A DNA stretch of 64,000 bases from a candidate division WOR-3 bacterium (lineage in GTDB: Bacteria > Hydrothermota > Tepidihabitantia > SM23-42 > JAOAFX01), in assembly GCA_039802005.1 (NCBI GenBank), contig JBDRVV010000013.1:1385-65384 (forward strand), in the 5' to 3' direction. The notes under the pieces are model-generated. The model saw nothing but the letters and a program-made list of their open reading frames with translations. It was not told the DNA's origin and did not search any database. Of the stretch, positions 3,447 to 64,000 are shown in pieces. The position numbers were made by a program, and so were the translations under genes. The first letter of the stretch is position 1; every line of letters begins with the position of its first letter.

Positions 3447-3619
3447 GCATCAGCAAGCTGATGCACTCCGGGGAAAGGAGCATCAGCAAGCTGATGCACT
3501 CCATAACTAAAATAATACCTGGAGTGCAGTAGCTTGCTACTGCGTTGTAGAAGAATGGAGTGCAGTAGCTTGCTATTGCGTTGCAGAAGAATGGAGTGCA
3601 GTAGCTTGCTACTGCGTGG
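3447..3619. repeat. Tandem array of two different 18-bp palindromes: 2x GCATCAGCAAGCTGATGC (period 33) then 3x GCAGTAGCTTGCTACTGC (period 36)
   Basis: Read directly from the sequence. Each unit is a near-perfect inverted repeat. The array sits 10 nt upstream of the kinase-helicase start codon and abuts the stop of the upstream gene. Confidence 0.9.
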
Positions 3620-3620
3620 T

Positions 3621-4487
3621 TTAACCCGGAAATGCAGAGATATGCACAGGGGCATTTTTATAAAAAACCATCTGACCGACTAACTTTCTACCTTTAAATC
3701 CTTTATGCCCGGATTTACTATCAAAACCAGTCTCAATTATAGTTTGTTTTAGATTTTTAAAAAAGTTTTCCACATGAGGTTTGGTCCCTGTACTCCGCTG
3801 GTATTCAATCGCATCCAGTGCATAACTGCGCAGCAATTTCTTTTCAAATTTATGATATATCTCAGAAGAAGCAAATATATCACAACCAAGTATAGTATGT
3901 CCAGCAACACCCAAAAATCCGACCGTATTATGATTTAACCCATCAAATCCCTCAACATAACGTTCAATCTCATCGTTAAGATTATCAAATATTTCATGCA
4001 TAGATGAAGTTTTTGATTTTGTCCTGGTGACCGTCAATTTCCTATCAATTTCTTTCCATACTTGATGCTGAGTATCAGTTTTTTTACTATCCGAAGATGC
4101 AAGAATGGAGCGAATTCTCGGATACGAACAATAGCCCGTTCTGAATCCACCAATCTCTTCCCATCTTTTCTCTTCGGCACATATCACCGGTATTTGACTG
4201 CGCGAATGTGGTTGAGCAACGAATGATTGCGCAATTATACGGTTCTGCATAGAACCGGTTATTTCTTCACCATCAATCATCAGCACGGGAGAATCACCCT
4301 TGTTGTCAAATATTATTTTGTTTACATCAGGTGTGGCAAGTTCACAAAAACTTGCTATACCCGTAGCGATAAGATTATCAATGGTATCAATTTGTGCGTT
4401 TCCATTATTTCCATCATTTTTTACTGGATAGAGCATCAAATTTCTTAAAAATATTGGTTCACCGAGATTTAATTTCGTGAAATCCAT
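3621..4487 (-). CDS. Hypothetical protein (possibly ARPP-1/DUF6569-like; contains a PVLMIDGEEITGSMQNR motif)
   Basis: ORF with a GGAGG RBS 7 nt upstream of the ATG (MDFTKL...). Family assignment is from memory only. Confidence 0.55.
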   Translation of the reverse strand: MDFTKLNLGEPIFLRNLMLYPVKNDGNNGNAQIDTIDNLIATGIASFCELATPDVNKIIFDNKGDSPVLMIDGEEITGSMQNRIIAQSFVAQPHSRSQIPVICAEEKRWEEIGGFRTGYCSYPRIRSILASSDSKKTDTQHQVWKEIDRKLTVTRTKSKTSSMHEIFDNLNDEIERYVEGFDGLNHNTVGFLGVAGHTILGCDIFASSEIYHKFEKKLLRSYALDAIEYQRSTGTKPHVENFFKNLKQTIIETGFDSKSGHKGFKGRKLVGQMVFYKNAPVHISAFPG

Positions 4488-4495
4488 AAGACCTC

Positions 4496-4948
4496 CTATG
4501 GAGCATAAAAAACCCCAAAATGCCAGGTGGTGGACCAATCTGTATACCAGGTCCACTTATGATTATAGGCGCGGACGCGCCAGAAATAAAAGCCATTTCT
4601 TGAAACTGTATATGCTGTGGAACATACTTCCGCATTTACCAGTGGAGCATAGGGTAAAGCGGTTGTATCATTCGCAACTTGCAATTGGTAGTATTCTACA
4701 TCTTCAACAACGCTCCACTTTAATTTAACATCATGAGGATATGGTGTTGCAAACCAGATGGAAGTATCATTTCTTGGACTAATCAACTGTGGAGCAGAAG
4801 GTGGTGGATAAAGAGAATCAAAGGGCGGCTCGTATTCATTGGGATTTTTGCAACTGATATTAAAATTAAGGCAAATTATCATAATGGGAAGCAAAATACA
4901 ACCCCCCATAATGATTTTAATTGCGGGAAATTTGTTTTTAATACCCAT
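4496..4948 (-). CDS. Small secreted/lipoprotein, hypothetical
   Basis: N-terminal hydrophobic signal ending in a Cys lipobox (ICLNFNISC). Confidence 0.5.
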   Translation of the reverse strand: MGIKNKFPAIKIIMGGCILLPIMIICLNFNISCKNPNEYEPPFDSLYPPPSAPQLISPRNDTSIWFATPYPHDVKLKWSVVEDVEYYQLQVANDTTALPYAPLVNAEVCSTAYTVSRNGFYFWRVRAYNHKWTWYTDWSTTWHFGVFYAP

Positions 4949-6370: not shown

Positions 6371-7282
6371 TTATTGAGGAATTTTAAGGTAAATATCGTC
6401 AAAATCAACTTTCACGGATGTTCCCGCCTCGTGGCTAAACACATACAATCCCCAGTAACCATTTTCAAAGGCAGTATTTATTAAAGAGACAGGGAATAAA
6501 TATATATCATCCAGATAAATAGGTAATGCATCACCCGCCTGAACTGCTTTGAGCGTATGGAATACGCCTTCTGTTGTTTCTCGTATCTTTGTATAAAAAA
6601 CTGTTAACGAACCATTTTTCATTAGGCGATATTGCACCGAAGTTTTTGTAATTTTTATGGAATAAAAATTTAAACTATCCTGGTACCATAATAGAATTCC
6701 TGTTTCCCAATTTTGGCCGGAAACCGGGGATACCATGAATTTAAAACTAAATTTAAATGCATGCGTGCGGTTTCTAAAAAAAGTTATTGCAGGATTGGTA
6801 TTATCAGTATCAGTTCCAGTATAAATATGATTGCCATTTGAATCCTCTGATATACGCCAATCCCCACTGACAGTAATAAACCCGTATGGTACAGAATTTA
6901 TTTCATCGTCTTCAAAGTGGAAGGTGTTAAAAAAAATTCTATAATTCGTAAGTTTTTTTCCAGCCCAAAGACTTTCATTTTCAATTATAATATTGGCAAA
7001 GTATTTTGTTTGCGCAGTTATTTTATATATTCCTGGGTCTATCCTCGTAAAAGAAAAGCATCCATCAGCATCGCTCGTCTCCGCTTGGACGATGTTGTTA
7101 TTGTAATTTAAAAGGTTTATTATTGCACCGGTGATAGTAAGAGAATCTGGTTCATAGACATAACCCTGCACTTCTGCCTTATCAGGATTTTTGGGGTCGT
7201 ATTTGTTGCTGCGCGGTGCATTTATACAATGGGAGAATAATGAAATAAATATAACCAAAGGGATAGTAAGTATTTTTCTCAT
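6371..7282 (-). CDS. Lipoprotein with an N-terminal carboxypeptidase-regulatory-like beta-sandwich, hypothetical
   Basis: Signal peptide (MRKILTIPLVIFISLFSHC) and a CarbopepD_reg-like segment (GYVYEPDSLTITGAIINLL...DADGCFSF). Confidence 0.5.
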   Translation of the reverse strand: MRKILTIPLVIFISLFSHCINAPRSNKYDPKNPDKAEVQGYVYEPDSLTITGAIINLLNYNNNIVQAETSDADGCFSFTRIDPGIYKITAQTKYFANIIIENESLWAGKKLTNYRIFFNTFHFEDDEINSVPYGFITVSGDWRISEDSNGNHIYTGTDTDNTNPAITFFRNRTHAFKFSFKFMVSPVSGQNWETGILLWYQDSLNFYSIKITKTSVQYRLMKNGSLTVFYTKIRETTEGVFHTLKAVQAGDALPIYLDDIYLFPVSLINTAFENGYWGLYVFSHEAGTSVKVDFDDIYLKIPQ

Positions 7283-7283
7283 A

Positions 7284-8024
7284 TCAAAATTTAATTTTGT
7301 ATTCAATTTTTATGGATTTTTGTTCAGGAACAAAATATATGGAATTGCTGCCATCATTTGAAATATCAACTTTCAAATCAGCGAAGAGTGCATCCAGAAT
7401 ACTATAAAGGTAGAATCCTGCAAAGACCGAAGAACTTAAAAGAAATATATGATACGACCTGTTATAAGTATTATAGAATTCATCCATATATTCAACACTA
7501 TCAGGTCCAAGTTCGAGATATTCGTTTTTTTTATTTTCTGTCTCCATCCACAAATATATTGATGAGGCAAGGCTCAAGGATGCACCGAGCATTATTAATT
7601 TTCCTTTTTTATCTTCACCTTTTATCAATTGTCCAGTCCCAGGTATAAAGCAGGAACACATTGCAGATTCTTGGGCAATCTCTTTTTTTGCATCATTTAT
7701 AATTGCTATTACCGATGAATCGGCATCGTCTTTATTCAATTTAAATTTAGGATTGAGTTTTAGCAAAATTTTGAAATGCTCCTTAGCGGAAATTTTATCA
7801 TTTATCTTAGCATAACTTAGTGCTAAGTATTTATGGGCATCAAGCTTTTCTATTTTGCTTAAATTTGGTAATACGACTTCAAGTGTTTTTATTGTGCCAA
7901 CATAATTTTCTTTCTGGTAGCAATCCTTTGCAGTATCTATATAGTTATCTACTTTCTCGGTATCATTTTTCTGAGAGAATAACATGCCCAAAATTAAAAA
8001 TACTGCACAAAAAACTCTGCTCAT
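7284..8024 (-). CDS. Hypothetical TPR-like / membrane protein
   Basis: ORF with a signal/TM segment, helical repeats, then a C-terminal hydrophobic region. Confidence 0.45.
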   Translation of the reverse strand: MSRVFCAVFLILGMLFSQKNDTEKVDNYIDTAKDCYQKENYVGTIKTLEVVLPNLSKIEKLDAHKYLALSYAKINDKISAKEHFKILLKLNPKFKLNKDDADSSVIAIINDAKKEIAQESAMCSCFIPGTGQLIKGEDKKGKLIMLGASLSLASSIYLWMETENKKNEYLELGPDSVEYMDEFYNTYNRSYHIFLLSSSVFAGFYLYSILDALFADLKVDISNDGSNSIYFVPEQKSIKIEYKIKF

Positions 8025-10555
8025 AGATTTATTTTTATACCAATCCTTGCCCGTCTTGGGGCAGTATATGCCGCAACCCAGTCATCGGTTGCAATGATTA
8101 ATGCTCTAAAGGAATGGAATGTTTCGTAAGGAGTCATAATACCGTCATGATTGAAATCTGCAGCCGGGCTATAATATGGATTGGTCAGTGAAAGAAAGTC
8201 ATTAAAATCTTCAGCCCTGATTTTTTCCAGAGACATTAAAGGATAATGAGGTGCAACTTCATAACGCTGATCAAGAAGATTGATTACTTCTAATTGTAGA
8301 TTGAAAGATATTCTATTGATATTGAATCCTTTTGCTATTACACAATCAATCTGACGCTGGAAGGGTAGATGGAAAATATTGCGCTCTTCGTATTTACCCA
8401 AATATCCGGGCGGGGTGTAAGGAAAACCATTGCCAAAATAGGCAAGAAGATAGATATTTGTCCCTAAGGGACCTTTTAATCCACCTTGAATGAAAATACG
8501 GTGACGTTGGTCAAAGTTCAAATAGTAATCTTGTGTTGGTTTGCTCACAGAAGTATCTGCATACTCACCCGCATAAGAACTCGTACCTTTTGCCCAGGAA
8601 AGGGTGTATGAGATTTTTCCTGAGAAGAAATTGTTGCTATATTCTAAGATGGTTTCCATTCCTTTGATATTGGCATATTCAACATTATAATACTGAAAAT
8701 ACCCAAGGGGCAATTGCATAACATAGCGTGTGCCCGTCAAGTCTGAAACATCTTTGTAAAAAAGATTTGTTGTTGCAGTGAGATTTTCTTTGACCAATCC
8801 CTGAAATCCGATTTCATAACTCAATGTCTTCTCAGGTCTTAACTCAGGATTTCCCACAATTGATATGAAATTGTAGTATTGTGGTGCAAGAGGCAGAAGC
8901 TCATAAAAAGAATAGACATAATCATATAGGGGCGGCTGGACATATCTGCCGATATTCGCACGGAAAAGGAAATTTTCGGTTACCAGAAATGAGCAGCCTA
9001 TTCTGGGTGAGATATTTATCTGGGGTTTCGCACCTTCAATATCCACCGCATAGTAGTCATAGCGTGCGCCAAGTTTCGCATAGAAACCTTTAATATCAAC
9101 ATTGTCCTGGACATAAACAGAATATTCCTTTGGTTGATGATTGTAAACATCCGCAATTGGATTCAAGGTATCAGTGCAGACAAAATATGTAAAATTATCA
9201 AGGTTCTGATAGATATATTCAACCCCGGCTTTTAATTCATGATACTGATGGAGTTGGAGGTTGGCTTTAAAGTTGATATTATACACTTCTGAATTCTTTT
9301 CCTGATACTGGGGATAATCACCTTCACTAATAACTTTATAATGAGCTACACCAAATGGATTCCTGTGGGTTCCCCGGGGCCATTTCAGTGTTCGGTAATC
9401 GCGAAATTTGAAATCATCAAATATCCCATAATTACCTGACTCACGCACACCATAAGTTTTTTGTGTATACAGTCTACTGACCGTGAGATTGAATAATTTT
9501 GTATTATCGGGCAGATAGTTTAAATTTATTGCGGCGAGTTCACCCTTGCGCATATCCGAACGATAATGGTCAAGATAGAATTTAAAAAATGGATCTGGAC
9601 CCGAATATCGGTCAAATTGACTTCTTGATTTTGCCCCACTCACACTAAACTTAATCTTGCCTGAAGGTGTAAAGAGCCATTTGCTGTAGATTGAATAATC
9701 TCCTCTTTGTTTATGGGGCAATATATATAATCTTGGGTCCCAATCCTGGGTTTGCATAATATCTATTGAGGCAAGCCCCTGCAAGTTTCTTGTGGCAGGT
9801 AAATGAATTGTGGATTGATAATTCTCATAACCAAAGTCATAATAAAAAGGCATAATCTTTTCGGTCTTGGCATACAGATTTCCCTGTAACTTTTTCTGCG
9901 GTCTTTCTGAGATTAAATTCACCACCCCGGACATTGCCCGACCATATTCGGCATCAAAACCTCCAGGCAGAAATATCACTTCTTCAACAATCCCTTTTGA
10001 TATTTCAATTGCGACATCCCCGGTCTGGGGATCAATAATTGAAACATTATCAACCATATACTGGACTTCAGTTGCCCTACCACCACGGACATGTAAGGCA
10101 GTATCGGTCTTTGCCACGGCTGCCTGGAATGTGATTACAGCAGGTGTATAATCAACAGGCAATGTGGCAATCTCGGCTTTACGCACAATCTGGGTTGTAG
10201 CGACATAATCCTTTTTTATCGTTGGAGTTTCTCCATAAACCGTAACCGGTGCAATCTCAATGGCAGTCTGTTTCAATGTGACATTGAGTCTTGTGGTTCG
10301 GTCAACTTCAACCAGGACATTTTCAATCCTCTTTGTCTGATAGCCCAGGCACGAGACTTCAATTGTGTACCTCCCTGAAGGCACATTTAAGATAAAAAAA
10401 TTGCCATTGTCATCAGTTGCTGCACCCATTTCAGTATTTAAAATAATTACATCGGCAAAGGTAATCGGTTCTTTGGTATCTTCATCCTTTACTACACCCT
10501 GAATCTTGCCAGTAATGCCGGTAAAAAGAATTGTAATCAAGATAAAATTGACCAT
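8021..10555 (-). CDS. TonB-dependent receptor-family outer membrane protein with N-terminal CarbopepD_reg domain
   Basis: N-terminal signal, CarbopepD_reg-like segment (GKIQGVVKDEDTKEPITFADVIILN...NGNFFILNVPSGRYTIEV), plug-like region, and a long beta-strand-rich C-terminus ending in an aromatic residue. Confidence 0.65.
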   Translation of the reverse strand: MVNFILITILFTGITGKIQGVVKDEDTKEPITFADVIILNTEMGAATDDNGNFFILNVPSGRYTIEVSCLGYQTKRIENVLVEVDRTTRLNVTLKQTAIEIAPVTVYGETPTIKKDYVATTQIVRKAEIATLPVDYTPAVITFQAAVAKTDTALHVRGGRATEVQYMVDNVSIIDPQTGDVAIEISKGIVEEVIFLPGGFDAEYGRAMSGVVNLISERPQKKLQGNLYAKTEKIMPFYYDFGYENYQSTIHLPATRNLQGLASIDIMQTQDWDPRLYILPHKQRGDYSIYSKWLFTPSGKIKFSVSGAKSRSQFDRYSGPDPFFKFYLDHYRSDMRKGELAAINLNYLPDNTKLFNLTVSRLYTQKTYGVRESGNYGIFDDFKFRDYRTLKWPRGTHRNPFGVAHYKVISEGDYPQYQEKNSEVYNINFKANLQLHQYHELKAGVEYIYQNLDNFTYFVCTDTLNPIADVYNHQPKEYSVYVQDNVDIKGFYAKLGARYDYYAVDIEGAKPQINISPRIGCSFLVTENFLFRANIGRYVQPPLYDYVYSFYELLPLAPQYYNFISIVGNPELRPEKTLSYEIGFQGLVKENLTATTNLFYKDVSDLTGTRYVMQLPLGYFQYYNVEYANIKGMETILEYSNNFFSGKISYTLSWAKGTSSYAGEYADTSVSKPTQDYYLNFDQRHRIFIQGGLKGPLGTNIYLLAYFGNGFPYTPPGYLGKYEERNIFHLPFQRQIDCVIAKGFNINRISFNLQLEVINLLDQRYEVAPHYPLMSLEKIRAEDFNDFLSLTNPYYSPAADFNHDGIMTPYETFHSFRALIIATDDWVAAYTAPRRARIGIKINL

Positions 10556-10631
10556 TTTTCCTCCACGATGTTCTAATTATAACTATGATTTTTTAAAAAT
10601 CAAGTTGTTTGTAAGTCATTTACGCAATAAT

Positions 10632-12272
10632 TTAATTGCTTACAATAACAATTGTAGTATTCAAACTATAGTTTCCTTTTTCCAACAGTACCAGATATAC
10701 GCCTGAATTCAAATCCCTAAATGAGTAGTTTAATGCATATCTTCCTGCATTCTTAAACCCATTTTCAATTATCCTTACCAGCCTGCCATCAATGGAATAG
10801 ACTTTTAAAGAAATATGCCCTGCTTCAGGAATAGTATAAGTAATCACCGCATTATCCCGCACCGGATTGGGGGAAATATTTAAAGAAAATTTTTGTGGTT
10901 TTTCCTGTTTCTGCTCTTGGATACCCGTAATCGCCTGCCTGCCCCAGTACCACCTTGCCGGATGAGAATACTGCCAGCCCTTCCAGCACATCCATATCGG
11001 GTCTAAATCCGCAACCATATCCTGACCAAAGACATAAAAGAATTGATTATTCTGGGTATCAATCCGCTTGGCAATTTGCGCCAGCCCATGCCGATAACCA
11101 AAACTGCCTGTAATATTACGCGGTGTATGCCAGTTCAACCCACCATCCGTTGAATAATTATAATACAGATTCCAAAACGCCAGTGAATCCTGTCCCGCTC
11201 CTGCCTGGGAATGCCAGAGACCAATGAGATAATCTCCACCCGTAGCAATCGTGGGATAGAAGTTCCTATTTAAGCCAGTAGATATTTCTCTACATACCTG
11301 CCCTGAACCCGGTGAGACATAGATTTTCCCAGTCGTTGGATAATTGCCAGCAATATAATCCTGATAATCAATATTATCAAATATCAATTTGGGCTCACCA
11401 TTGTCCATAACCACGGCCTGGGTCCAGAAGACCAAATTGGAATCAAAGGGCTCAGGCCAGACCATATTGTAAACCTGTTCTGATGACCAGTTTATGCCAT
11501 CGGTTGTCGTGCGGTAGTAGATATTCAAGAGTGTATCATAGTAAAAGATATAGGCAATACCATTATTAATATCAAATCCCCAGTATCTACGATAATCAGG
11601 ATTGATATAACCACCCGCCAGATGGGTCGTGAGATTACAATTGTAGGTGCGATAGATAAGACGGATGCGCCCTGAAAGATCATTTTCAACCATTCCAATA
11701 AAGATAAGATTACCGTTGGGTAGTTGTTTGCCAACATTCCGCATTGTGTTTACAATACCTGGTCCTAAATCAGTTGGCGCATCCCAGTATGAGGACCACC
11801 AGCCACCGGTTTCAAATTGCGCAACCAATCTTGAAGAAGCTACATATCCGCAATTATAAGAGATATGTGGTCCACTTCCCGCGGTATTAAATCCCGAGGC
11901 AATTGAATTGGGATAATGACACGCACCAAATTGTCCAGTATATACGCCAAAGTCAGTTAGTGATAGAGTAAAGAAATTATCGGTCTGTGAAACACTTAAA
12001 TTTAATCCCGATAGGTAACTTCTACACACAAACTGTAGTCCGGCAACCATTGGATTATATGACAAACATTCTTGTATTTGAGTCCACATTGACCAGGCTG
12101 TACCCGAGTCTATTACAAAAAAATCATTTGACATAATCACAGGTGTATGTGGTTGATTGTATAATCCTGGTGCTTCTGAAGACATCGGCTCATGACTCAC
12201 AATATCTATCGGCAAGGTTATTGCTATAATTATATTAAACACAATCAGAAGCAAGAAGACAAGTCTCATCAT
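10632..12272 (-). CDS. BNR-repeat (sialidase-like beta-propeller) surface protein with T9SS C-terminal domain, paralog A
   Basis: Signal peptide. BNR motifs (STDGGLNWH, TTDGINWS). T9SS CTD-like tail. AAGGAGG RBS. The central ~0.9 kb of DNA is nearly identical to paralog B. Confidence 0.7.
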   Translation of the reverse strand: MMRLVFLLLIVFNIIIAITLPIDIVSHEPMSSEAPGLYNQPHTPVIMSNDFFVIDSGTAWSMWTQIQECLSYNPMVAGLQFVCRSYLSGLNLSVSQTDNFFTLSLTDFGVYTGQFGACHYPNSIASGFNTAGSGPHISYNCGYVASSRLVAQFETGGWWSSYWDAPTDLGPGIVNTMRNVGKQLPNGNLIFIGMVENDLSGRIRLIYRTYNCNLTTHLAGGYINPDYRRYWGFDINNGIAYIFYYDTLLNIYYRTTTDGINWSSEQVYNMVWPEPFDSNLVFWTQAVVMDNGEPKLIFDNIDYQDYIAGNYPTTGKIYVSPGSGQVCREISTGLNRNFYPTIATGGDYLIGLWHSQAGAGQDSLAFWNLYYNYSTDGGLNWHTPRNITGSFGYRHGLAQIAKRIDTQNNQFFYVFGQDMVADLDPIWMCWKGWQYSHPARWYWGRQAITGIQEQKQEKPQKFSLNISPNPVRDNAVITYTIPEAGHISLKVYSIDGRLVRIIENGFKNAGRYALNYSFRDLNSGVYLVLLEKGNYSLNTTIVIVSN

Positions 12273-12294
12273 TCCTCCTTAATTACACAATAAT

Positions 12295-12322
12295 ATTATA
12301 CTCAAAAAAAAAAAATAGTCAA
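12295..12322 (-). promoter_or_regulatory. Sigma70-like promoter of paralog A: TTGACT-16 nt-TATAAT, with a 12-nt poly-T (A12 on + strand, 12304-12315) filling the spacer
   Basis: Read directly: the reverse complement gives TTGACTaTTTTTTTTTTTTgagTATAAT, followed by AAGGAGG and ATG. Confidence 0.6.
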
Positions 12323-12388
12323 GGGTATAATGCAATAGGGTGGGAATTCTTCCCACCCTTGCAATGAAACCCGCACAGAAGATTATAA

Positions 12389-12502
12389 AATCGGGAAGCA
12401 AGCGCTTCCACAACAACCCGGATAGCATATCATGCTAATTTCAACTTCGGTTTCTCTATTTTTATCTTCCATACAGGTTATCGGTTGGATCAGGATTTCC
12501 AT
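12389..12502 (-). CDS. Unannotated 37-aa Cys-rich peptide MEILIQPITCMEDKNRETEVEISMICYPGCCGSACFPIL; candidate RiPP precursor
   Basis: The ATG lies 1 nt after the TAA stop of the radical SAM gene, with an AGGAGGTG RBS inside that gene's 3' end. Five Cys residues cluster toward the C-terminus. A hairpin (GGGTGGGAAgaaTTCCCACCC, 12346-12366) lies downstream. Confidence 0.5.
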
Positions 12503-12503
12503 C

Positions 12504-13880
12504 TTAATCACCTCCTTTCATCACTTGCCCTTTATCCAGGGCAGTCTTTTCAAGATATTTATTTAATAATCCCCAGAAATGGTCGCATATTGCAGATTTC
12601 AACTCACTTTCAGTTTTGCATTTCTTTCTTATAACCTGGCATCCCCCCATACATAATGGCAATAGTTTACAGGATTTGCAGGGTTCTGTATCACAGGGAT
12701 GCTTTTCAAAAAAGTAGTTTATATACTGCTGATTGGGGATGAATTTACCTTCTTTTATATAACCAACTTCATCTCCGATGTCTAAATGAGAGGTACATTT
12801 ATAAACGCGGCTGTTTGGACCGACTGTGTATATACCAAAGACTTGTGCTCCACAATAAAAACTTCTTACCGGCAGCGCATTGGGAAATACTGTGTCAATA
12901 TCTTCTTCTTTGTCACTTGTTATCTTTCTAATTGCTTCATATATTGCGTTATACTCGTGGGCAGAAAATCCTTTTTCTTGAGGTGCGAAATCTGCACATT
13001 TTTGAGTATAATCTCTTAATTTCCCGGGGCGTACTACAGTATTCTTACCATATAACCAATCTGTTTTTCTTAAGAATTCAAGTACAGCATTTGCGTTATC
13101 TCGGTCAATATTTAATCTAATATCAACATGGTCAAAATATTTTTTTGCGATGATTATTGCCTCTTTTATTCTTCCAAATGTTGGTTTACGGTTTTTAAGT
13201 GGCCGGCGTCGGTTATGAACTTCCTCGGGTCCATCAAGGGTTATCTGAATCAATTTTACATTGGAATTTATTAATTCTCGGGCTATTTCTTCGGTTAAAA
13301 GATATCCATTAGTAACAATATTCGCCTCATATCTAATTTTATTAGCAGAAGCAATATTTATTAATTCAGAGCTCAATTGTTTGATTCTATCATATGCCAG
13401 TAATGGTTCGCCACCATACCAAGAAATTGATATTCCTTCTGGTTTTACCCGTTGTATCTCCGAATTTATGAACTTTAATACATTGTTGCAGTCTTGGATA
13501 GTCATTGTTTCATTAATTTCGCTCTCAAAGCAATAAATACAACGAAAATTACATGCCCGAGTAGGGAGCATCGTGATAGAAAGATTTCGCCGTTCAAATG
13601 CACCTCTGAAGGCACGGAATTTTACAAATTCAATTTCATTTACATTATCTTCTACAATAAAACCACATTCAAACATTTTTGAAAAAAGATCGTCCCTGTT
13701 AGTTCTAAGAGTAAGGTTATTAGGATTTTCTAATAAGTTTGAGACATCACTCAGATCGCAGTTTCGCACAAAAGCCAGTGCTCCAGTATAAGTGTTGTAT
13801 AAAAGATTAACCTTGCCGTCTGTACTTTTGTACCAATAATTATAGATTGATTGTTTATAATTTTTACTTGTCTTCATTGT
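12504..13880 (-). CDS. Radical SAM / SPASM-domain peptide-modifying enzyme with an N-terminal RRE(PqqD)-like domain
   Basis: CNFRCIYC (CxxxCxxC) radical SAM motif. C-terminal Cys-rich SPASM region (CGAQ...CTSH...CDTEPCKSCKLLPLCMGGCQ). An N-terminal ~100-aa region precedes the core. The ATG at 13880 is preferred over the GTG at 13994. Confidence 0.75.
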   Translation of the reverse strand, partial: TMKTSKNYKQSIYNYWYKSTDGKVNLLYNTYTGALAFVRNCDLSDVSNLLENPNNLTLRTNRDDLFSKMFECGFIVEDNVNEIEFVKFRAFRGAFERRNLSITMLPTRACNFRCIYCFESEINETMTIQDCNNVLKFINSEIQRVKPEGISISWYGGEPLLAYDRIKQLSSELINIASANKIRYEANIVTNGYLLTEEIARELINSNVKLIQITLDGPEEVHNRRRPLKNRKPTFGRIKEAIIIAKKYFDHVDIRLNIDRDNANAVLEFLRKTDWLYGKNTVVRPGKLRDYTQKCADFAPQEKGFSAHEYNAIYEAIRKITSDKEEDIDTVFPNALPVRSFYCGAQVFGIYTVGPNSRVYKCTSHLDIGDEVGYIKEGKFIPNQQYINYFFEKHPCDTEPCKSCKLLPLCMGGCQVIRKKCKTESELKSAICDHFWGLLNKYLEKTALDKGQVMKGGD

Positions 13881-14161
13881 TCGTCCCTGTTGCTTACATA
13901 AGTTTTTAATGCAAATTTCGTGCCCAGACAAAAATGTTGAAATTTCAGAAGTTTTAATTTTAACTTTTGGGAAAAAGTGTGAAAATTTATACACTATTTA
14001 TGGACACCATCAAAAACTCACGAAATTTGATAGATTTGTGAAATACAAAAGTGTATACTATTTAAACTCATTTTACACTATTTTTACACCTTTGATTTAT
14101 TTCTATACCCAGGCAATCATAATTGATCATTGCTGGAACACTTAATTCGTTCCGGGTTATG

Positions 14162-15802
14162 CTATTTTAAAAATGCAAAGAGACTGCTGGTGTTCCACTT
14201 TCCATTTTCAAGCATAAGCACATATATCCCGGCATTTAAATCATTGAATGAGCAGTCTAATTTATATCTTCCTGCATTCTTAAACCCATTTTCAATTATC
14301 CTTACCAGCCTGCCATCAATGGAATAGACTTTTAAAGAAATATGCCCTGCTTCAGGAATAGTATAAGTAATCACCGCATTATCCCGCACCGGATTGGGGG
14401 AAATATTTAAAGAAAATTTTTGTGGTTTTTCCTGTTTCTGCTCTTGGATACCCGTAATCGCCTGCCTGCCCCAGTACCACCTTGCCGGATGAGAATACTG
14501 CCAGCCCTTCCAGCACATCCATATCGGGTCTAAATCCGCAACCATATCCTGACCAAAGACATAAAAGAATTGATTATTCTGGGTATCAATCCGCTTGGCA
14601 ATTTGCGCCAGCCCATGCCGATAACCAAAACTGCCTGTAATATTACGCGGTGTATGCCAGGTCAATCCTCCATCCGTTGAATAATTATAATACAGATTCC
14701 AAAACGCCAGTGAATCCTGTCCCGCTCCTGCCTGGGAATGCCAGAGACCAATGAGATAATCTCCACCCGTAGCAATCGTGGGATAGAAGTTCCTATTTAA
14801 GCCAGTAGATATTTCTCTACATACCTGCCCTGAACCCGGTGAGACATAGATTTTCCCAGTCATTGGATAATTGCCAGCAATATAATCCTGATAATCAATA
14901 TTATCAAATATCAATTTGGGCTCACCATTGTCCATTACCACTGCTTGGGTCCAGAAGACTAAATTGGAATCAAAGGGCTCGGGCCAGACCATATTGTAAA
15001 CCTGTTCTGATGACCAGTTTATCCCATCAGTGGTAGTGCGATAGTAGATATTCAAGAGTGTATCGTAGTAAAAGACATAGGCAATACCATTATTAATATC
15101 AAATCCCCAGTATCTACGATAATCAGGATTGATATAGCCACCAGCAAGCTGGGTCGTGAGATTGCAATTATAGGTGCGATAGATAATTTTTCTATCATCA
15201 GAATAGTTTTCTATAGTAACCGCAATAAATAATATGTTTCCATTCGGAAATTGCTTACCGATATTCCACCAGGCTTTATTTATTCCTGGTCCGAGGTCAA
15301 CCGGTGGATCCCAATATGAAGACCACCAACCACCAGTTTCAAATATTCCTACCATTCTGGAATATGTTAGATAACCACAAGAAAGAGAGACATGAGGTCC
15401 AGAACCTGCAATATCAAAACCTGAGGCAATGGCAGATGGATATATAAACCCACCAAATTGACCTGTGTATACGCCGATATCAGTTAATGAAAAAGAAAAG
15501 AGGTTATCTGTTTGGGAAACATTCAAATATAAGCCGGTTCCAAATTCATGGCAAACAAATAATAGACTACCGACTAAAGCATTGTATGCCAGACATTCAT
15601 GACTTTGTGTCCAAAGAGAGTAGGCGTAAACAGAGGAGTCAACAGGTGAAAAGGAATTTGAGTTAACTATCGGAGTGTGTGATAGATTGTAAGTTTTATG
15701 CTCTTGATTTAATAGCACTAGCTCAGGTGGATTAATAGGGATACTAATCGTCACTGCCCTACTAATTTGAATGAGAATAAGAAAGAAACAAATATTTCTC
15801 AT
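14162..15802 (-). CDS. BNR-repeat surface protein with T9SS C-terminal domain, paralog B
   Basis: Same architecture as paralog A. The N-terminal ~170 aa and the last ~35 aa are diverged; the core is near-identical at the DNA level. Confidence 0.7.
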   Translation of the reverse strand: MRNICFFLILIQISRAVTISIPINPPELVLLNQEHKTYNLSHTPIVNSNSFSPVDSSVYAYSLWTQSHECLAYNALVGSLLFVCHEFGTGLYLNVSQTDNLFSFSLTDIGVYTGQFGGFIYPSAIASGFDIAGSGPHVSLSCGYLTYSRMVGIFETGGWWSSYWDPPVDLGPGINKAWWNIGKQFPNGNILFIAVTIENYSDDRKIIYRTYNCNLTTQLAGGYINPDYRRYWGFDINNGIAYVFYYDTLLNIYYRTTTDGINWSSEQVYNMVWPEPFDSNLVFWTQAVVMDNGEPKLIFDNIDYQDYIAGNYPMTGKIYVSPGSGQVCREISTGLNRNFYPTIATGGDYLIGLWHSQAGAGQDSLAFWNLYYNYSTDGGLTWHTPRNITGSFGYRHGLAQIAKRIDTQNNQFFYVFGQDMVADLDPIWMCWKGWQYSHPARWYWGRQAITGIQEQKQEKPQKFSLNISPNPVRDNAVITYTIPEAGHISLKVYSIDGRLVRIIENGFKNAGRYKLDCSFNDLNAGIYVLMLENGKWNTSSLFAFLK

Positions 15803-15826
15803 AACTCCTCCTTATTACACAATAAT

Positions 15827-15852
15827 ATTATACCCCCCCAAAAAAAAGTCAA
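15827..15852 (-). promoter_or_regulatory. Promoter of paralog B: TTGACT-14 nt-TATAAT, with the spacer made of T7G7 (C7A7 on + strand)
   Basis: Read directly: the reverse complement gives TTGACTtttttttgggggggTATAAT, followed by AAGGAGG and ATG. Confidence 0.5.
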
Positions 15853-15923
15853 GTGGTTGGATAATCTTTTTGAAATTAGCAGAAGCATATTGACTTAAAG
15901 GTAAATATCAGTAATCTTAAAAA

Positions 15924-17003
15924 ATGACAAAGAAAATTAGATTGATGAATGATAAACGTAAATCTGTAAAAGTGCCAGAGTTCATTATTCAGGGACATAA
16001 TATCATTGACAGGATTTATGAAATCTTGCAAGAGCAGCATGTTCGTTTCAAAAAGATTCTTGTTTTATGTGACGAAAAAACATTTAAGATTGGCGGCAGA
16101 AGAATTGTCAAACTATTTAAGGAAAAAAATGTTTCAATTTCAAACAAGTTCATCAAAAAGAGCGATGAGAAGACTGTAAGATTGGTTGCAAATTTGATTA
16201 AAGAGCAAAAATTTGATTTAGTTATCGGTTTCGGAGGTGGTCGGGTTCTTGATGTTGCAAAAATTGCCGCAGGAAAGAACAGAATAAAATTTATAAGTAT
16301 ACCGACAATTCTATCTAATGATGGCATTGCCTCACCGGTTTCAGTGATCCTAAATAAAAAAGGAATACCAGTGAGCCATCTGACCAATCCCCCTTACGGA
16401 ATAATCATAGATTTTAACATAATAAAAAAAGCACCAATAAGGCATCTGCGGTCAGGAGTAGGCGATCTGATCTCCAATCTTTCCGCCGTATTTGATTGTC
16501 GGCTGGCGAAAAGAAAAAAGAGAGAAAAAATCGATAATAAAATCCTGAGACTGGCGGAAATCGGTGCGAAGAAATTGTTAAAACTAAAAACGAAAAATAT
16601 TAAGAGTCAGAAATTTCTTGAAGCGCTTTGTGATGGTCTGCTCAAAAGCGGTCTGGCAATGTGCCTTGTTGGTTCATCAAGGCCCGCAAGCGGGAGTGAG
16701 CATAAGATAAGCCATGCAATGGATTATTTATTCCCGGGGCGTGATGCCCTTCATGGTGAGCAGGTGGGGATTGCTACAATCTTTACAATGATGCTCCAGA
16801 AAAATCCATATTTAAAGGCGGTAGAACGGCTGTATAGAAATATCAACTTTCCCTGTGATATATCTTATTTAAAAATTAAATCTGACGATTTTATAAAAGT
16901 TGTTATATATGCAAAAAAAATTCGTCCCTTACGTTATACGATTTTAGAAGATAAAAAACCATCAAAAGAAGAAATCAAAAAAATTTTAATTCAAGACTTT
17001 TAG
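15924..17003 (+). CDS. DHQS-like superfamily NAD(P)-dependent dehydrogenase; glycerol-1-phosphate dehydrogenase (EgsA/AraM)-like or glycerol dehydrogenase-like
   Basis: GFGGGRVLDVAKIAA nucleotide-binding motif, paired His metal ligands (SEHKISHAMD...HGEQVG), ~359 aa. Confidence 0.55.
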   Translation: MTKKIRLMNDKRKSVKVPEFIIQGHNIIDRIYEILQEQHVRFKKILVLCDEKTFKIGGRRIVKLFKEKNVSISNKFIKKSDEKTVRLVANLIKEQKFDLVIGFGGGRVLDVAKIAAGKNRIKFISIPTILSNDGIASPVSVILNKKGIPVSHLTNPPYGIIIDFNIIKKAPIRHLRSGVGDLISNLSAVFDCRLAKRKKREKIDNKILRLAEIGAKKLLKLKTKNIKSQKFLEALCDGLLKSGLAMCLVGSSRPASGSEHKISHAMDYLFPGRDALHGEQVGIATIFTMMLQKNPYLKAVERLYRNINFPCDISYLKIKSDDFIKVVIYAKKIRPLRYTILEDKKPSKEEIKKILIQDF

Positions 17004-17084
17004 CAATATTATAGAACAAATTTTTTCCTCCAACATGTATTCATTCAATATCGCATTTTTGATAATTTGACTTTATTTTTATAA

Positions 17085-17118
17085 TTCCGGCATTCTGGTA
17101 ATTACCAGAATGCCGGAA
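17085..17118. promoter_or_regulatory. 34-bp perfect palindrome TTCCGGCATTCTGGTAATTACCAGAATGCCGGAA (candidate operator) just upstream of a TTGACA-16-TATAAT promoter
   Basis: Read directly. Related copies lie at 17474-17493 and 42635-42668. Confidence 0.6.
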
Positions 17119-17158
17119 TGCTTATTGACAGAGCAGATAATTTTTATATAATGATACA

Positions 17159-17467
17159 ATGAGAAGAAAAATGGCAGAGACCTATTATCGCGCTTCAAGA
17201 TTCTGTAGGGTTTTGGGTAATCCCACCGCATATCAAATTTTGAAAATGCTGACAAAAGGAAAAATGACCCCGACCGACCTCAGTAACGAAATTGGCCTTT
17301 CTATTAAAACTATTTCAGATGTTCTTCGTAATCTGCGCCAGGTTGACCTGGTGAGGTATGATACATTTAGTAATCGTAAGGTGTATTATCTTAAGGACCG
17401 GGCGATTAAAAAAGTTCTCAGAAATTTAGAAACTTACGCTGATAAAATGAGGTTTAAAAAATGGTAG
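17159..17467 (+). CDS. ArsR/SmtB-like winged-helix transcriptional regulator
   Basis: Small HTH protein (ILKMLTKGKMTPTDLSNEIGLSIKTISDVLRNLRQVDLV) flanked by the palindromic sites. Confidence 0.55.
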   Translation: MRRKMAETYYRASRFCRVLGNPTAYQILKMLTKGKMTPTDLSNEIGLSIKTISDVLRNLRQVDLVRYDTFSNRKVYYLKDRAIKKVLRNLETYADKMRFKKW

Positions 17468-17532
17468 TCCGCATTCCGGTAATTACCAGAATACCAGAAT
17501 TGGCAATTAAAATTAGGAATTAAATAATTAAT

Positions 17533-18261
17533 ATGAATGATTTGAATCATAATATGGAAAAATGGCAGCCAAATGAGGGGAAAAAACTCATAATTAATGT
17601 TGATGGGATTGATTATGCGCGATTGCCGGTAAAGACTCATATTATAACTGCTCAGGATGATATTTTTAAGATTGTTGAACAATATGTTCTTGGGCATTTA
17701 AAGGAAGGTGATGTGGTATTTTTAAGTGAACGAATAGTTGCAATCACACAGGGCAGGGCATTTCCAATTAAAGATATTAAACCATCGTGGCTTGCAAGGT
17801 TTCTTGTAAAATTTGTTCATAAATCACCTTATGGGATTGGTCTGGGTAGCCCCTGGACTATGGAACTGGCAATAAGGGAAGCAGGGATATTACGGATTCT
17901 TCTGGCGGCATTTGTTTCAGCTATTACCAAGCCTTTGGGTATAAAAGGTCTGTTTTATATTGTTGCGGGCAAATCAGTGGCTGCGATTGATGGACCCTGC
18001 CATTATACATTGCCACCATATAATGAATATGCAAAATTGGGACCGAAAAATCCGAATAAAGTTGCAGGACAATTAAAAGGAAGATTTAGATACGATTTTG
18101 TGATAATTGATGCCAATGATTTGGGTGTATCGGTGCTTGGTAAATCAGAGCCTAAAATAAGCGATGATTTCTGTAAAAAAGTATTTCGCGACAATCCTTT
18201 AGGACAATCAAGCCAGCAAACGCCGATTGCAATTGTACGAAGAGTTAAAAAATCTGATTAA
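17533..18261 (+). CDS. CofE-like (F420-0:gamma-glutamyl ligase family) protein
   Basis: GDVVFLSERIVAITQGRA and IIDANDLG segments resemble the CofE family. Assigned from memory. Confidence 0.4.
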   Translation: MNDLNHNMEKWQPNEGKKLIINVDGIDYARLPVKTHIITAQDDIFKIVEQYVLGHLKEGDVVFLSERIVAITQGRAFPIKDIKPSWLARFLVKFVHKSPYGIGLGSPWTMELAIREAGILRILLAAFVSAITKPLGIKGLFYIVAGKSVAAIDGPCHYTLPPYNEYAKLGPKNPNKVAGQLKGRFRYDFVIIDANDLGVSVLGKSEPKISDDFCKKVFRDNPLGQSSQQTPIAIVRRVKKSD

Positions 18262-20363
18262 TATCCCTGTAATGCAGAGCGGTCAAGTTTTTCAAATTCA
18301 TCTTCCCCATGTAATTTGGTTTCAAGTGTATGGACATCACAAGATTCTTTTGGCTCGGTACCTTTAATAAAAGGTTCTTCACGGGGTGTGGGACAGTATT
18401 CATTTGCAAGTAATCCAGATTTTGGACATATTTTACACCAAACAATTCCTTCAGGAACAGGAAAATCATCTGTTATAAGGGTGTCAATCCTTGATATTAT
18501 CTCACCCCAGATCGGTGCTGAAACCACGCCACCGGTTGCACCCCGGAAAATTGTTTTGTTATCATCAAATCCGACCCAGACCCCTGCAGTATAATGGGGT
18601 GTAAAACCAATAAACCAGGCATCAGAATAATTATCAGTAGTCCCTGTTTTACCTGCAGCAGGACCTTTGTAGTATTTTCTTATTTCATACCCCGTTCCAC
18701 CATCTACAACTGAACGCATCAAATTGACCATAAGATAACATGTTTGTTCAGAAAGTTTTTTCTCAGTGGCGGGTTTATTCATTTCAATGATGGTGCCATC
18801 TTTATTAACAATCTTCCTGATCATTATTAAAGACTTCTCTTCACCAAGATTGGCAATCGTGCTGAATGCTTGTGTTAGTTCAGCAAGGCTTACTTCACAG
18901 GAACCAAGTGCGAGTGACACCACCGGTAAAAGTTTTGATTTTATGCCTAAGCCATAGGCATACTTTACTACGAGATCCGGACCAACGATACGAATCAATC
19001 TTACCGCAACAAGATTTCGTGACAAAGCAAGTGCCTTTCGCATTGTTATGGGACCCAAAAACTTATGGTCATAATTCGCTGGACGATAGATACTGTCAGG
19101 TCCTGCGACTTCAAGGACAATCGGTAAATCAAGGACGAGATCCGCAGGTGTAAAGCCGTTATCAAGTGCTGCAAGGAATACAAAGACCTTGAATGAACTA
19201 CCAGTCTGGCGTTTTGCCTGCGTTGCCCGGTTGAATTTGCTCTGGCTAAAATCTCTGCCGCCAATCATTGCTTTTATTTCCCCTTTTCTATGGTCAGCAA
19301 TTATCAATGCACCCTGTAGATAGGGTGTGTTGTTTAATGTGTCAGGGATACCTGTGGAATCAATCTTGGCCTTTGTTATTTTAAATTTATAATCTTTTTC
19401 AATCGTCTTTAAATGTTTTTCCAGAACTTCTTCTGCAACCTCCTGGATATTTCTATTGATTGTAGTATAGATACTTGCACCACTACGATAAAGAAATTCC
19501 GCACCATACTTTAATTCAAGATGTCTTCTTAGTTCCTCAATGAAATATTCACCTACTGAATGTCCCTTTTTACGTTCCGCTACATTTAATGGTTCGTTTA
19601 TTGCCTTGTTGTATTCTTCCTCAGTTATAATATGGTCCTTAAACATCTGTTTTAATACAAGGTCTCTTCTTGCCTTTGCCCTTTCGGGATAACGATAAGG
19701 AGATAAGTATTCCGGTGACTTAGGAAGGGCAACAAGCAGTGCCGATTCACTCAAAGTTAAATCCGAGATATTTTTATTGAAATAATAACGCGCGGCAGTT
19801 GCCACACCGTATCGCCCCTGACCAAAATTTACCTGATTTAAATATCGTTCAAGAATTTCATCCTTGGTATATGCCCTTTCAATCCTTAGTGCTAAGGCAA
19901 TTTCTTTTAATTTACGGAGAATAGTTTTTTCCTGGGTAAGAAACATATTTCGTGCAAGTTGCATCGTTATTGTACTAAATCCCTGGGCAGCCCGAAGATG
20001 GAGTATATTCTGAATAACCGCTCGGAATATTGCCTTAACATCAACACCCCAGTGTTTATAAAATGTTTTATCTTCAATACATATAAAACCTTTTTTAAGA
20101 TAATCAGGTACATCGCTTAAATTTGCTAACTCTCTTCTTTCAATAAAAAATTCAGTAAAAAGGCTGTCCTGGTCGTCATATACTTTTGTTGATACTGGTG
20201 GTGCATAAAAAGATATTGCTTCGGCAGGTGGAAGGTCATGGATAATCTGAATGTATAGTCCAAGGGCGAAACCAGCAATTACGGATAAAATTATAATTAT
20301 CGCCCAGCGCAGACGGTGAGTTTTTTTCTTTTTATCTGAGGGCATCTTCGGTTTTGGCATCAA
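18258..20363 (-). CDS. mrcA: Class A penicillin-binding protein (GT51 transglycosylase + transpeptidase)
   Basis: N-terminal TM. GT51 motifs (EDKTFYKHWGVD, QGFSTITMQLARN). Transpeptidase motifs (SSFK, KTG). Confidence 0.85.
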   Translation of the reverse strand: MMPKPKMPSDKKKKTHRLRWAIIIILSVIAGFALGLYIQIIHDLPPAEAISFYAPPVSTKVYDDQDSLFTEFFIERRELANLSDVPDYLKKGFICIEDKTFYKHWGVDVKAIFRAVIQNILHLRAAQGFSTITMQLARNMFLTQEKTILRKLKEIALALRIERAYTKDEILERYLNQVNFGQGRYGVATAARYYFNKNISDLTLSESALLVALPKSPEYLSPYRYPERAKARRDLVLKQMFKDHIITEEEYNKAINEPLNVAERKKGHSVGEYFIEELRRHLELKYGAEFLYRSGASIYTTINRNIQEVAEEVLEKHLKTIEKDYKFKITKAKIDSTGIPDTLNNTPYLQGALIIADHRKGEIKAMIGGRDFSQSKFNRATQAKRQTGSSFKVFVFLAALDNGFTPADLVLDLPIVLEVAGPDSIYRPANYDHKFLGPITMRKALALSRNLVAVRLIRIVGPDLVVKYAYGLGIKSKLLPVVSLALGSCEVSLAELTQAFSTIANLGEEKSLIMIRKIVNKDGTIIEMNKPATEKKLSEQTCYLMVNLMRSVVDGGTGYEIRKYYKGPAAGKTGTTDNYSDAWFIGFTPHYTAGVWVGFDDNKTIFRGATGGVVSAPIWGEIISRIDTLITDDFPVPEGIVWCKICPKSGLLANEYCPTPREEPFIKGTEPKESCDVHTLETKLHGEDEFEKLDRSALQGY

Positions 20364-63537: not shown

Positions 63538-63637
63538 TATACCACCTTAAATCAAAAATATTACGCCACCCGCCTTCCGCCATCCGCTAACTTTTCTCTG
63601 GCGGTAAGCGGAAAGCGAATAGCGGAAAGCGGACTCG

Positions 63638-64000
63638 GTCGCAATCCTTTATTCATCAAGGTAAGTTTTCAGACGCACCCCCTCACCCTTCCCTCTCCCC
63701 CTTGGGGAGAGGATTAAGGTGAGGGGCATCAAGGTAAGTTTTCAGACGGGGAGATTGCTTGAATCCGTTTCCCCTCGTCGTCGAAGAGTCGCAATCCTTT
63801 ATTCATCAAGGTAAGTTTTCAGACTGCACCCCCTCACCCTTCCCTCTCCCCCTTGGGGAGAGGATTAAGGTGAGGGGCATCAAGGTAAGTTTTCAGACTA
63901 CAGAATACATCTAAAATTTTAAGACAAGAATTTGAAAGGGTCGCAATCCTTTATTCATCAAGGTAAGTTTTCAGACAAAAGAATACATTGCCCAGTGGGG
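63638..64000. CRISPR. CRISPR-like array running off the window end: 37-bp repeat GTCGCAATCCTTTATTCATCAAGGTAAGTTTTCAGAC x3, 40/41-bp unique spacers, plus two copies of a 53-bp GC-rich palindrome each followed by the 3' 20 nt of the repeat
   Basis: Repeats at 63638-63674, 63788-63824, 63940-63976. Half-repeats at 63728-63747 and 63879-63898. Palindromes at 63675-63727 and 63825-63878. Confidence 0.5.

Follow-up and report, generated by a model that had tools for sequence, protein, structure and literature searches.

Evidence for partial gene conversion between tandem propeller-protein genes around a putative RiPP cassette in a candidate division WOR-3 bacterium

We analysed a 64-kb stretch of contig JBDRVV010000013.1 from a candidate division WOR-3 bacterium (the window; all features are numbered in its coordinates, and L-numbers such as L001 denote the corresponding loci of relatives). 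Two tandem paralogous genes for putative surface proteins, p1 and p2, enclose here a two-gene cassette for a predicted ribosomally synthesised and post-translationally modified peptide (RiPP). Both are open reading frames (ORFs) of 546 amino acid (aa) residues on the minus strand; p1 (10632-12272) adjoins a gene for a TonB-dependent receptor (TBDR) and p2 (14162-15802) a gene for an Fe-dependent alcohol dehydrogenase (ADH). The central and C-terminal parts of p1 and p2 are nearly identical down to their silent sites. Our results support recombinational homogenisation (gene conversion) of this tract, and not selection. The explanation that we favour, with a probability of about 75%, is an old tandem duplication that later underwent partial gene conversion by homologous recombination, with the repeats bracketing the RiPP module.

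The near-identical tract of p1 and p2

The tract was recovered by repeat finding and by blastn as a direct repeat with a core register offset of 3527 nt, and it is the sole long repeat pair in the window. The p1 copy at 10737-11657 (minus strand, p1 residues 206-512) and the p2 copy at 14264-15184 (minus strand, p2 residues 207-513) align over 921 nt with 22 mismatches, which corresponds to 97.6% identity. The inner and youngest part, 10737-11408 in p1 and 14264-14935 in p2, has 4 mismatches in 672 nt (99.4% identity). The outer part (11409-11657, 249 nt) has 18 mismatches, 16 of them synonymous, and is 92.8% identical. The longest exact repeats measure 397, 192, 73, 60 and 41 nt.

Outside the tract the ungapped identity of the two genes is 56-58%. 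When the nucleotides are aligned by codon, two N-terminal segments are 63% and 52% identical and the tail 60%. The drop at the tract edges is abrupt. It leaves ~205 codons at the start and 33 at the end divergent, the latter inside the sorting domain of the type IX secretion system (T9SS). A preliminary description of this DNA had noted two near-identical regions of ~0.9 kb in direct orientation, which the alignment confirmed; the coordinates it gave were essentially right, with the second interval ~3-16 nt off register. It had also described variable termini, and this pattern was confirmed, but the divergent N-terminus comprises ~205 residues and not ~170.

The promoter and the 5' untranslated region, ~60 nt, are also duplicated (12264-12326 and 15797-15857, 83% identity). 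Since this related upstream region begins at the TTGACT -35 box, the duplicated unit extends from the promoter to the stop codon. The -35 box of p1 coincides exactly with the start of the similarity to the p2 upstream region and thus marks the 5' edge of the duplicated unit.

The silent sites were then compared. The synonymous divergence (dS) between p1 and p2 was 1.46 for residues 20-164 (segment N1), saturated for residues 165-205 (segment N2), 0.40 for residues 206-290, 0.014 for residues 291-513 and 0.92 for the last 33 codons. It is thus about 100-fold lower inside the tract than outside, a pattern that was observed directly. Over the same core codons the orthologues L002 and L003 from other species had dS values of 1.1-2.2. 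The silent sites of the core are therefore free to change, and selection cannot explain their identity. The longest run of identical silent-capable codons between p1 and p2 was 127 (permutation p < 5e-5), whereas the runs in the ortholog controls were 7-11 codons and non-significant (p = 0.15-0.87). The stepwise change of the dS values points to two or more conversion events that differ in age. The youngest part of the tract differs by 0.6%, about as much as L006, the nearest relative, differs from the window in the flanks (0.5-0.9%), and conversion is therefore not frequent on the timescale of this strain split. Positive selection on the N-terminus was also considered and found no support, with a dN/dS ratio of 0.15-0.26 at saturated dS.

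Neighbour-joining trees were built on residues 22-94, 22-205 and 206-450. In the core tree p1, p2, L006, L001 and L008 clustered tightly. The N-terminal tree showed two deep types, one with p1, L001, L007, L002 and the full copy of L010, the other with p2, L008, L006, L034 and a relic copy in L010. This incongruence is what gene conversion predicts, since the core groups by genome and the N-terminus by allele type. Taken together, the drop in dS, the silent-site run and the tree incongruence bear out the gene conversion or recombination proposed at the outset.

Variants of the locus in related genomes

Five closely related loci were available from metagenome-assembled genomes (MAGs), among them L006 of GCA_039802065.1, L008 of GCA_039802225.1 and L034 of JBDRWH. 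Their flanks share 95-99.5% identity with the window, and deeply divergent modules surround the conserved core in a mosaic that is directly visible. In N1 (residues 1-164), type A occurs in p1 and L001, type B in p2 and L008 and type C in L006 and L034. In N2 (residues 165-205), p1 and L001 have type A, and p2, L006 and L008 have type B. The tail (last 33 residues) is of type a in p1 and L006, of type b in p2 and of type c in L001. The tail type tracks the downstream neighbour: type a is found with the TBDR gene, type b with the radical-SAM (rSAM) cassette of the window and type c with a LanM cassette. The N-terminus of p1 is 99.4-100% identical to that of L001, as is the N-terminus of p2 to that of L008, and the p1 tail is 100% identical to the L006 tail. 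In the core, p1 and p2 are 99.4% identical to each other, compared with ~95.5% to L001 or L008.

L001, with flanks of 96-98% identity, has a single family gene and, at the same site before the same TBDR gene, a different RiPP cassette (11721-18262). This cassette encodes a 69-aa ORF, a 993-aa LanM-type class II lanthipeptide synthetase (DUF4135 and LANC_like) and a 963-aa protein without a Pfam match. With rSAM in the window and LanM in L001, two different RiPP cassettes occupy one site within one species cluster.

Variants that lack the cassette were observed directly as well. In L006, whose flanks are 99.1-99.5% identical, the ADH gene is followed by one family gene and the TBDR gene. This gene is p2-type at 59/59 informative sites in residues 165-205 and then p1-type at 16/18 sites in residues 206-290 and at 38/38 in the tail. 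Judged by these sites, a crossover at the upstream repeat edge would be expected to yield a gene like that of L006, whose N1 nevertheless belongs to a third allele. L002 also has one intact gene and no cassette. The two variants bear out the earlier proposal of a deletion-prone interval.

The L002 gene can be traced in L010, to which L002 is 92% identical. L010 and L011 are two independent assemblies of a different species with flanks ~77% identical to the window, and their order is ADH, a 94-aa N-terminal relic of the second copy, rSAM, the 39-aa peptide, a full copy and TBDR. The L002 gene consists of the promoter and the first ~26 codons of the L010 relic joined to the L010 full copy, and the switch lies in ~13 shared nt. 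This stretch is too short for a collapse by the assembler, and the polymorphism is therefore real. Because the L010 relic is decayed and groups with the p2-type N-termini, these loci seem to favour an old two-copy layout with later losses.

The region 7216-11039 of L010 (and the same region of L011) looks pseudogenised. The upstream copy ends after 94 residues, the rSAM gene has an in-frame stop near codon 58, and the downstream full copy contains a -1 and a +1 indel (T7 to T8) within its first 50 codons; the ORF of the 39-aa peptide is intact. Contig breaks in L007 and L120 were also considered as signs of a second copy and were rejected, as both loci are single-copy. The L007 gene has a complete 5' end and its protein ends early at residue 440, and the L120 gene is split into two ORFs.

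The layout of the window was reproduced in a different sequencing run. The Logan contig L009 (SRR27730032, 2024 nt) covers 14295-12272 with 99.56% identity and nine differences. It spans the p2 tail, the rSAM gene, the peptide and the p1 promoter, and it contains both cassette junctions. L009 begins exactly 30 nt (k-1, with k = 31) before the first copy-specific base, which is the position expected where a de Bruijn graph meets a true repeat boundary. The MAG contigs of L008 and L034 end inside the core, at residues 474 and 259, which shows that assemblers struggle at loci of this type. The cassette junctions enter copy-specific family sequence, so any genome that bears the cassette has family DNA on both sides. 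A metagenome scan with the rSAM protein found only relatives of <=39% identity and no further copy of the locus.

The encoded proteins, the cassette and the neighbouring features

Both proteins have a predicted signal peptide, a beta-propeller and a T9SS type A C-terminal sorting domain, which is the sole Pfam or NCBIfam domain above threshold. Por_Secre_tail (PF18962, cut-off 27) scored 33.4 bits for p1 and 32.6 bits for p2, and TIGR04183 (cut-off 23) scored 34.1 and 29.2 bits. The signal peptide was assigned without a dedicated predictor, from a hydrophobic helix at residues 2-18 in the model that is followed by A-x-T-L-P. T9SS sorting domains are removed upon secretion. The variable last 33 residues lie in this cleaved domain, and the tail variation is therefore not surface diversity.

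The genes had been labelled as BNR proteins, and this label was upheld in part. No Pfam BNR (PF02012) or BNR_2 (PF13088) match was above threshold in p1 or p2; the BNR hit at residues 373-383 had an E-value of 0.19 and 12.3 bits, compared with a cut-off of 27. A distant relative in L012 passes both BNR_2 and BNR. An AlphaFold2 model of p1, computed with 25 family members, was all-beta with a propeller fold (pLDDT 79, pTM 0.72). The top Foldseek matches in the PDB were the GH145 structure 5mum (E 2e-10, TM 0.48/0.63), PL25 ulvan lyases and bacterial and phage sialidases. Tested against the Asp-box pattern S/T-x-D-x-G-x-x-W, the protein has two motifs, TTDGINW (residues 255-262) and STDGGLNW (residues 374-381), with invariant D, G and W columns. 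The model thus supports a sialidase-like propeller with a T9SS tail at the level of the fold, but BNR membership by sequence is not supported.

About 80 homologues were found. All that carry an organism label come from candidate division WOR-3 or from a plain 'bacterium', and by this sampling the propeller family appears to be restricted to WOR-3. The relatives in WOR-3 are annotated by NCBI as T9SS sorting-domain proteins, and there are several dispersed family members per genome. A literature search for WOR-3 combined with T9SS found nothing. In L031 (942-5705; WOR-3 bacterium RBG_13_43_14) three family members, 36-38% identical to p1, lie in tandem, so tandem arrays of this family are not unique to the window.

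The orthologue group of p1 and p2 (>=67% identity) always lies directly upstream of the 844-aa TBDR and a conserved gene string, as counted over every related locus that extends that far. From this constant adjacency we infer that p1 and p2 may be the surface-displayed partner of a TonB-dependent uptake system. In the window the TBDR gene is at 8021-10555 (minus strand; Pfam TonB_dep_Rec_b-barrel and CarboxypepD_reg) and forms the unique right-hand flank of the locus. The far end of the gene string downstream of it comprises a 311-aa ORF (3621-4556) and an 836-aa ORF (927-3437), both on the minus strand. By position, from the annotation of L002 17761-21193, the last members of the string are an ARPP-1 family protein and the 836-aa protein, which has Ser/Thr protein kinase and UvrD-type helicase domains in relatives. 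In the gap between the two ORFs lies a 36-nt unit repeated 2.7 times at 95% identity (3520-3617), and the unit contains the inverted repeat GCAGTAGCTTGCTACTGC.

The cassette between the copies is composed of a maturase gene and a candidate precursor gene. The rSAM/SPASM RiPP maturase (12504-13877, minus strand, 457 residues) matches Radical_SAM PF04055 with 8e-20. Its mechanical ORF extends to a GTG at 13994, and homologue alignments favour the Met at 13877. It is 99% identical to P0087/L009 and has 65% aa identity to L010. The best NCBIfam matches were the Clo7bot maturase TIGR04334 (249.7 bits) and CefB NF038107 (235.2 bits), both below the equivalog cut-off of 600 bits, and the ranthipeptide family PapB NF047865 scored 110 bits with a cut-off of 340.

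Directly downstream, at 12383-12502 (minus strand), a Cys-rich peptide of 39 residues is encoded, MEILIQPITCMEDKNRETEVEISMICYPGCCGSACFPIL. It had no Pfam or NCBIfam match. An ORF of the same length and position after the rSAM gene is conserved beside homologous maturases in five other loci, with 97% identity in L009, 82% in L010/L011 and 59% in L012/L013; this conservation was observed directly. L038 and L039 share its leader motif, P(I/L)TC(M/L)E. By its domain and the adjacent conserved peptide, the pair is most readily read as an rSAM/SPASM maturase with its cognate precursor, for which RiPP chemistry would be expected. Like the Clo7bot, CefB and PapB systems for Cys-rich RiPPs, it combines an rSAM core and a C-terminal Cys-rich region with an adjacent short Cys-rich precursor. 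Unlike them it scores far below every equivalog cut-off, and its precursor is encoded downstream, has a leader motif of its own and matches no library family. A literature search on Clo7bot, CefB and ranthipeptides gave no relevant description of this maturase-peptide family.

A functional coupling of the rSAM cassette to the BNR/T9SS genes was considered and rejected. L012 has both, and the cassettes of L038 and L039 occur without a family gene, so that the rSAM-peptide pair is treated as an autonomous module. A foreign origin of the cassette was likewise examined by base composition, which was uninformative (rSAM gene 34.6% GC, window 38.3%, neighbouring ADH gene 35.5%).

Between the stop codon of the peptide and the p1 promoter lies a perfect, GC-rich 9-bp hairpin, GGGTGGGAAgaaTTCCCACCC (12338-12358, minus strand). 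It probably terminates transcription of the cassette, although it lacks a following T-run. An Rfam scan of 10000-17600 gave only a sub-threshold chance match, to the hairpin at 12333-12362.

Each paralogue has its own predicted sigma-70-like promoter site and ribosome-binding site. The p2 site (15827-15852, minus strand) consists of TTGACT, a 14-nt spacer made solely of T7G7 and TATAAT; it lies 24 nt upstream of the ATG, with the ribosome-binding site AAGGAGG. The p1 site (12295-12322, minus strand; TTGACT, a 16-nt spacer of A T12 GAG, TATAAT) is the top promoter match of the region (11/12). The spacers between the -35 and -10 boxes are nearly all homopolymer, T7G7 at 15833-15846 for p2 and T12 at 12304-12315 for p1. 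The same spacer is T8G8 (16 nt) in L001 (9960-9990), T7G7 in L006 and L008, T8 in L007 and T11 in L003. These differences could reflect slipped-strand control of promoter strength or sequencing noise.

The Fe-dependent ADH-like gene (15924-17003, plus strand; Pfam Fe-ADH_2) is divergently transcribed and forms the conserved, unique left-hand flank; it is syntenic in L001, L002, L006, L008, L010 and L120. Beyond it an ArsR-type helix-turn-helix gene of 102 residues (ORF 17159-17467) lies between two 31-nt copies at 17083-17113 and 17471-17501, each palindromic with the core GCATTCTGGTAATTACCAGAATGC. L001 and L006 have this gene, and L002 and L010 lack it; in the latter two the ADH gene abuts an F420-ligase-like gene. 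The 31-nt repeats might serve as operators or delimit an inserted element. At 63637-63988 diverged repeats, 86-100% identical with offsets of ~150 nt and ~300 nt, reach the edge of the window.

Explanations and comparison with known systems

In the explanation that we favour, p1 and p2 would be tandem, separately promoted paralogues of a secreted beta-propeller specific to WOR-3, and their orthologue group would always come first in an operon-like cluster led by the TBDR. The duplication would be old, since silent sites have reached saturation, or nearly so, in the N-terminal ~205 codons and in the last 33. RecA-type homologous recombination would since then have replaced the middle and the C-terminal region of one copy by those of the other, at least two times. 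The older event would be preserved in residues 206-290 (dS 0.40) and the recent one from residue 291 to 512 (dS 0.014), at about the age of the nearest strain split. The resulting direct repeats of 0.4-0.9 kb would bracket the two-gene RiPP module, and one crossover between them would delete the 3.5-kb interval, with a single hybrid gene as the product, and the interval would be regained by the reverse event. The conserved core would also let strains exchange N-terminal alleles and downstream cassettes.

Several observations weigh against this explanation. The N-terminal alleles match, at 99.4-100% identity, alleles of strains with flanks of only 95-98.6% identity, which points to import between strains besides, or instead of, a purely intragenomic conversion. 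Bubble-popping by the assembler could have inflated the identity of the tract. The L006 gene lies on a 7-kb MAG contig, and its hybrid could be a collapsed repeat in this short contig. Each event could have been a deletion or an insertion, and by parsimony the roughly nine loci need several losses or two gains.

The import of a block from another WOR-3 strain by homologous recombination was weighed as an alternative that we regard as unlikely, yet as the strongest competitor. The second copy with the rSAM cassette, or an alternative N-terminal allele, would have arrived in this way, and the near-identical tract would be the shared arm where the crossover resolved, by Campbell-type integration or allelic replacement. 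Besides the N-termini shared by p1 with L001 and by p2 with L008, such import would account for the tails that track their downstream neighbours, for the different RiPP cassette of L001 at the same site and for the rSAM-peptide pair in L038 and L039, which moves as a module without a family gene. However, the relic copy, the rSAM gene and the peptide are found at the same site in L010/L011 despite flanks of only ~77% identity, which argues that the layout predates exchanges at the strain level, and the core of p1 and p2 is closer to each other than to L001 or L008. Import and conversion are also compatible, as both are homologous recombination through the same core. We consider it improbable that the pair is a dedicated system of high-frequency antigenic or phase variation, existing to generate surface diversity by programmed recombination. 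Five near-identical strains with three alleles of N1, two of N2 and three tails between them would fit such a system, as would the homopolymer promoter spacers that differ in length between strains (T7G7 and T8G8) and the analogy with the bab genes of Helicobacter pylori (PMC4552749). But both copies are complete and promoter-bearing, and no invertase, recombinase or diversity-generating retroelement was seen within 6371-18261. By the 0.6% difference of the youngest tract the events are rare on the timescale of the strain split, dN/dS stays at 0.15-0.26 in the variable part, and the tail variation falls within the sorting signal that is cleaved off. Cassette-type antigenic variation of the pilE/pilS, vlsE or tprK kind is likewise not indicated, as both ORFs are full-length and promoterless silent donors were not found. 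Of the surface variation that had been proposed for this locus, recombination thus stands, whereas a programmed or adaptive system is not supported.

Still less probable is an artefact of assembly, in which co-occurring strains were joined to a chimera, diverged copies were homogenised or a single gene was duplicated by the assembler. The likely metagenomic origin of the window, with all relatives being MAGs, and the contigs of L008 and L034 ending inside the core agree with such an error. The cassette, however, is flanked by tail b on one side and by a promoter and a type-A N-terminus on the other, and the promoter repeat has only 20 exact nt, which is too short for a misjoin. Both junctions recur in L009, which comes from a different run and is 0.44% diverged, 22 resolved differences persist inside the tract, and L010 and L011 independently show two copies around the rSAM gene. 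Practically no weight is left for purifying selection alone as the force that kept the cores alike after an old duplication. At the protein level the core is indeed the most conserved part of the family, with many invariant columns among 25 sequences and an ortholog dN/dS ratio of 0.08-0.10. This explanation was ruled out by the silent sites, which are also identical between p1 and p2 (dS 0.014) and are diverged between orthologues over the same codons.

A doubtful extension of the conversion scenario is that the propeller core serves as a portable homology arm and turns the 3' side of the gene into a hotspot for the exchange of RiPP cassettes among WOR-3 strains. The rSAM cassette of the window and L010 and the LanM cassette of L001 would then each travel with their own version of the gene's last 33-45 codons. 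In the two-copy state one crossover would remove or restore the cassette and at the same time swap the three N-terminal propeller blades. If this holds, peptide production and the surface-protein allele would be coupled in one reversible recombination switch, to which the homopolymer spacers (T7G7, T8G8, T12) might add a further layer of control.

The locus offers a clear natural case of tandem surface-protein paralogues that have undergone partial gene conversion, with the predicted products visible in sister genomes. It suggests that differences in RiPP clusters between strains can arise by ordinary homologous recombination between host genes, without the machinery of mobile elements. For the analysis of MAGs such a locus is a flag, as contigs break or may collapse there. 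The 39-aa peptide and its rSAM maturase constitute a compact, conserved and uncharacterised candidate RiPP family for heterologous expression. The pairing of propeller and TBDR suggests a T9SS-displayed partner of a TonB-dependent transporter outside the Bacteroidota that may bind or cleave the substrate.

The closest described analogue appears to be the bab paralogue system of H. pylori. The adhesin paralogues babA, babB and babC form chimeras by intragenomic recombination and gene conversion, strains differ in which chimera sits at which locus, and simple repeats add on/off control (PMC4552749). Both systems comprise paralogous surface-protein genes with conserved and divergent blocks. The bab genes have common 5' and 3' ends around a differing middle, whereas p1 and p2 share the middle and the 3' part and differ in the 5' ~205 and the last 33 codons. 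With the bab loci dispersed and not tandem, recombination there deletes no cassette, while p1 and p2 are in tandem. The proteins are unrelated, as the Bab adhesins are beta-barrels of the Hop family and p1 and p2 are putative T9SS-sorted propellers. Switching of bab was shown experimentally, whereas the p1/p2 locus is known from sequence.

The tufA and tufB genes of Salmonella evolve in concert by RecA-dependent gene conversion. As in this pair, the co-resident copies p1 and p2 hardly differ at silent sites within a sharply bounded tract. Homogenisation spans the entire tuf genes, which lie far apart in inverted orientation, while p1 and p2 are homogenised in part, lie in direct orientation 3.5 kb apart and have accessory genes between them. 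Direct repeats can also mediate the pop-out of accessory DNA by homologous recombination. The repeats of 0.4-0.9 kb flank a dispensable segment in the same manner, and the variants L006 and L002 keep one hybrid repeat. Unlike in a general pop-out, the repeats are functional genes here, and the product would be a chimeric surface-protein allele and not a scar. In conclusion, the process itself is familiar, and it is found here in a little-studied uncultured phylum, with a RiPP cassette in the loop and at an apparent hotspot for such cassettes.

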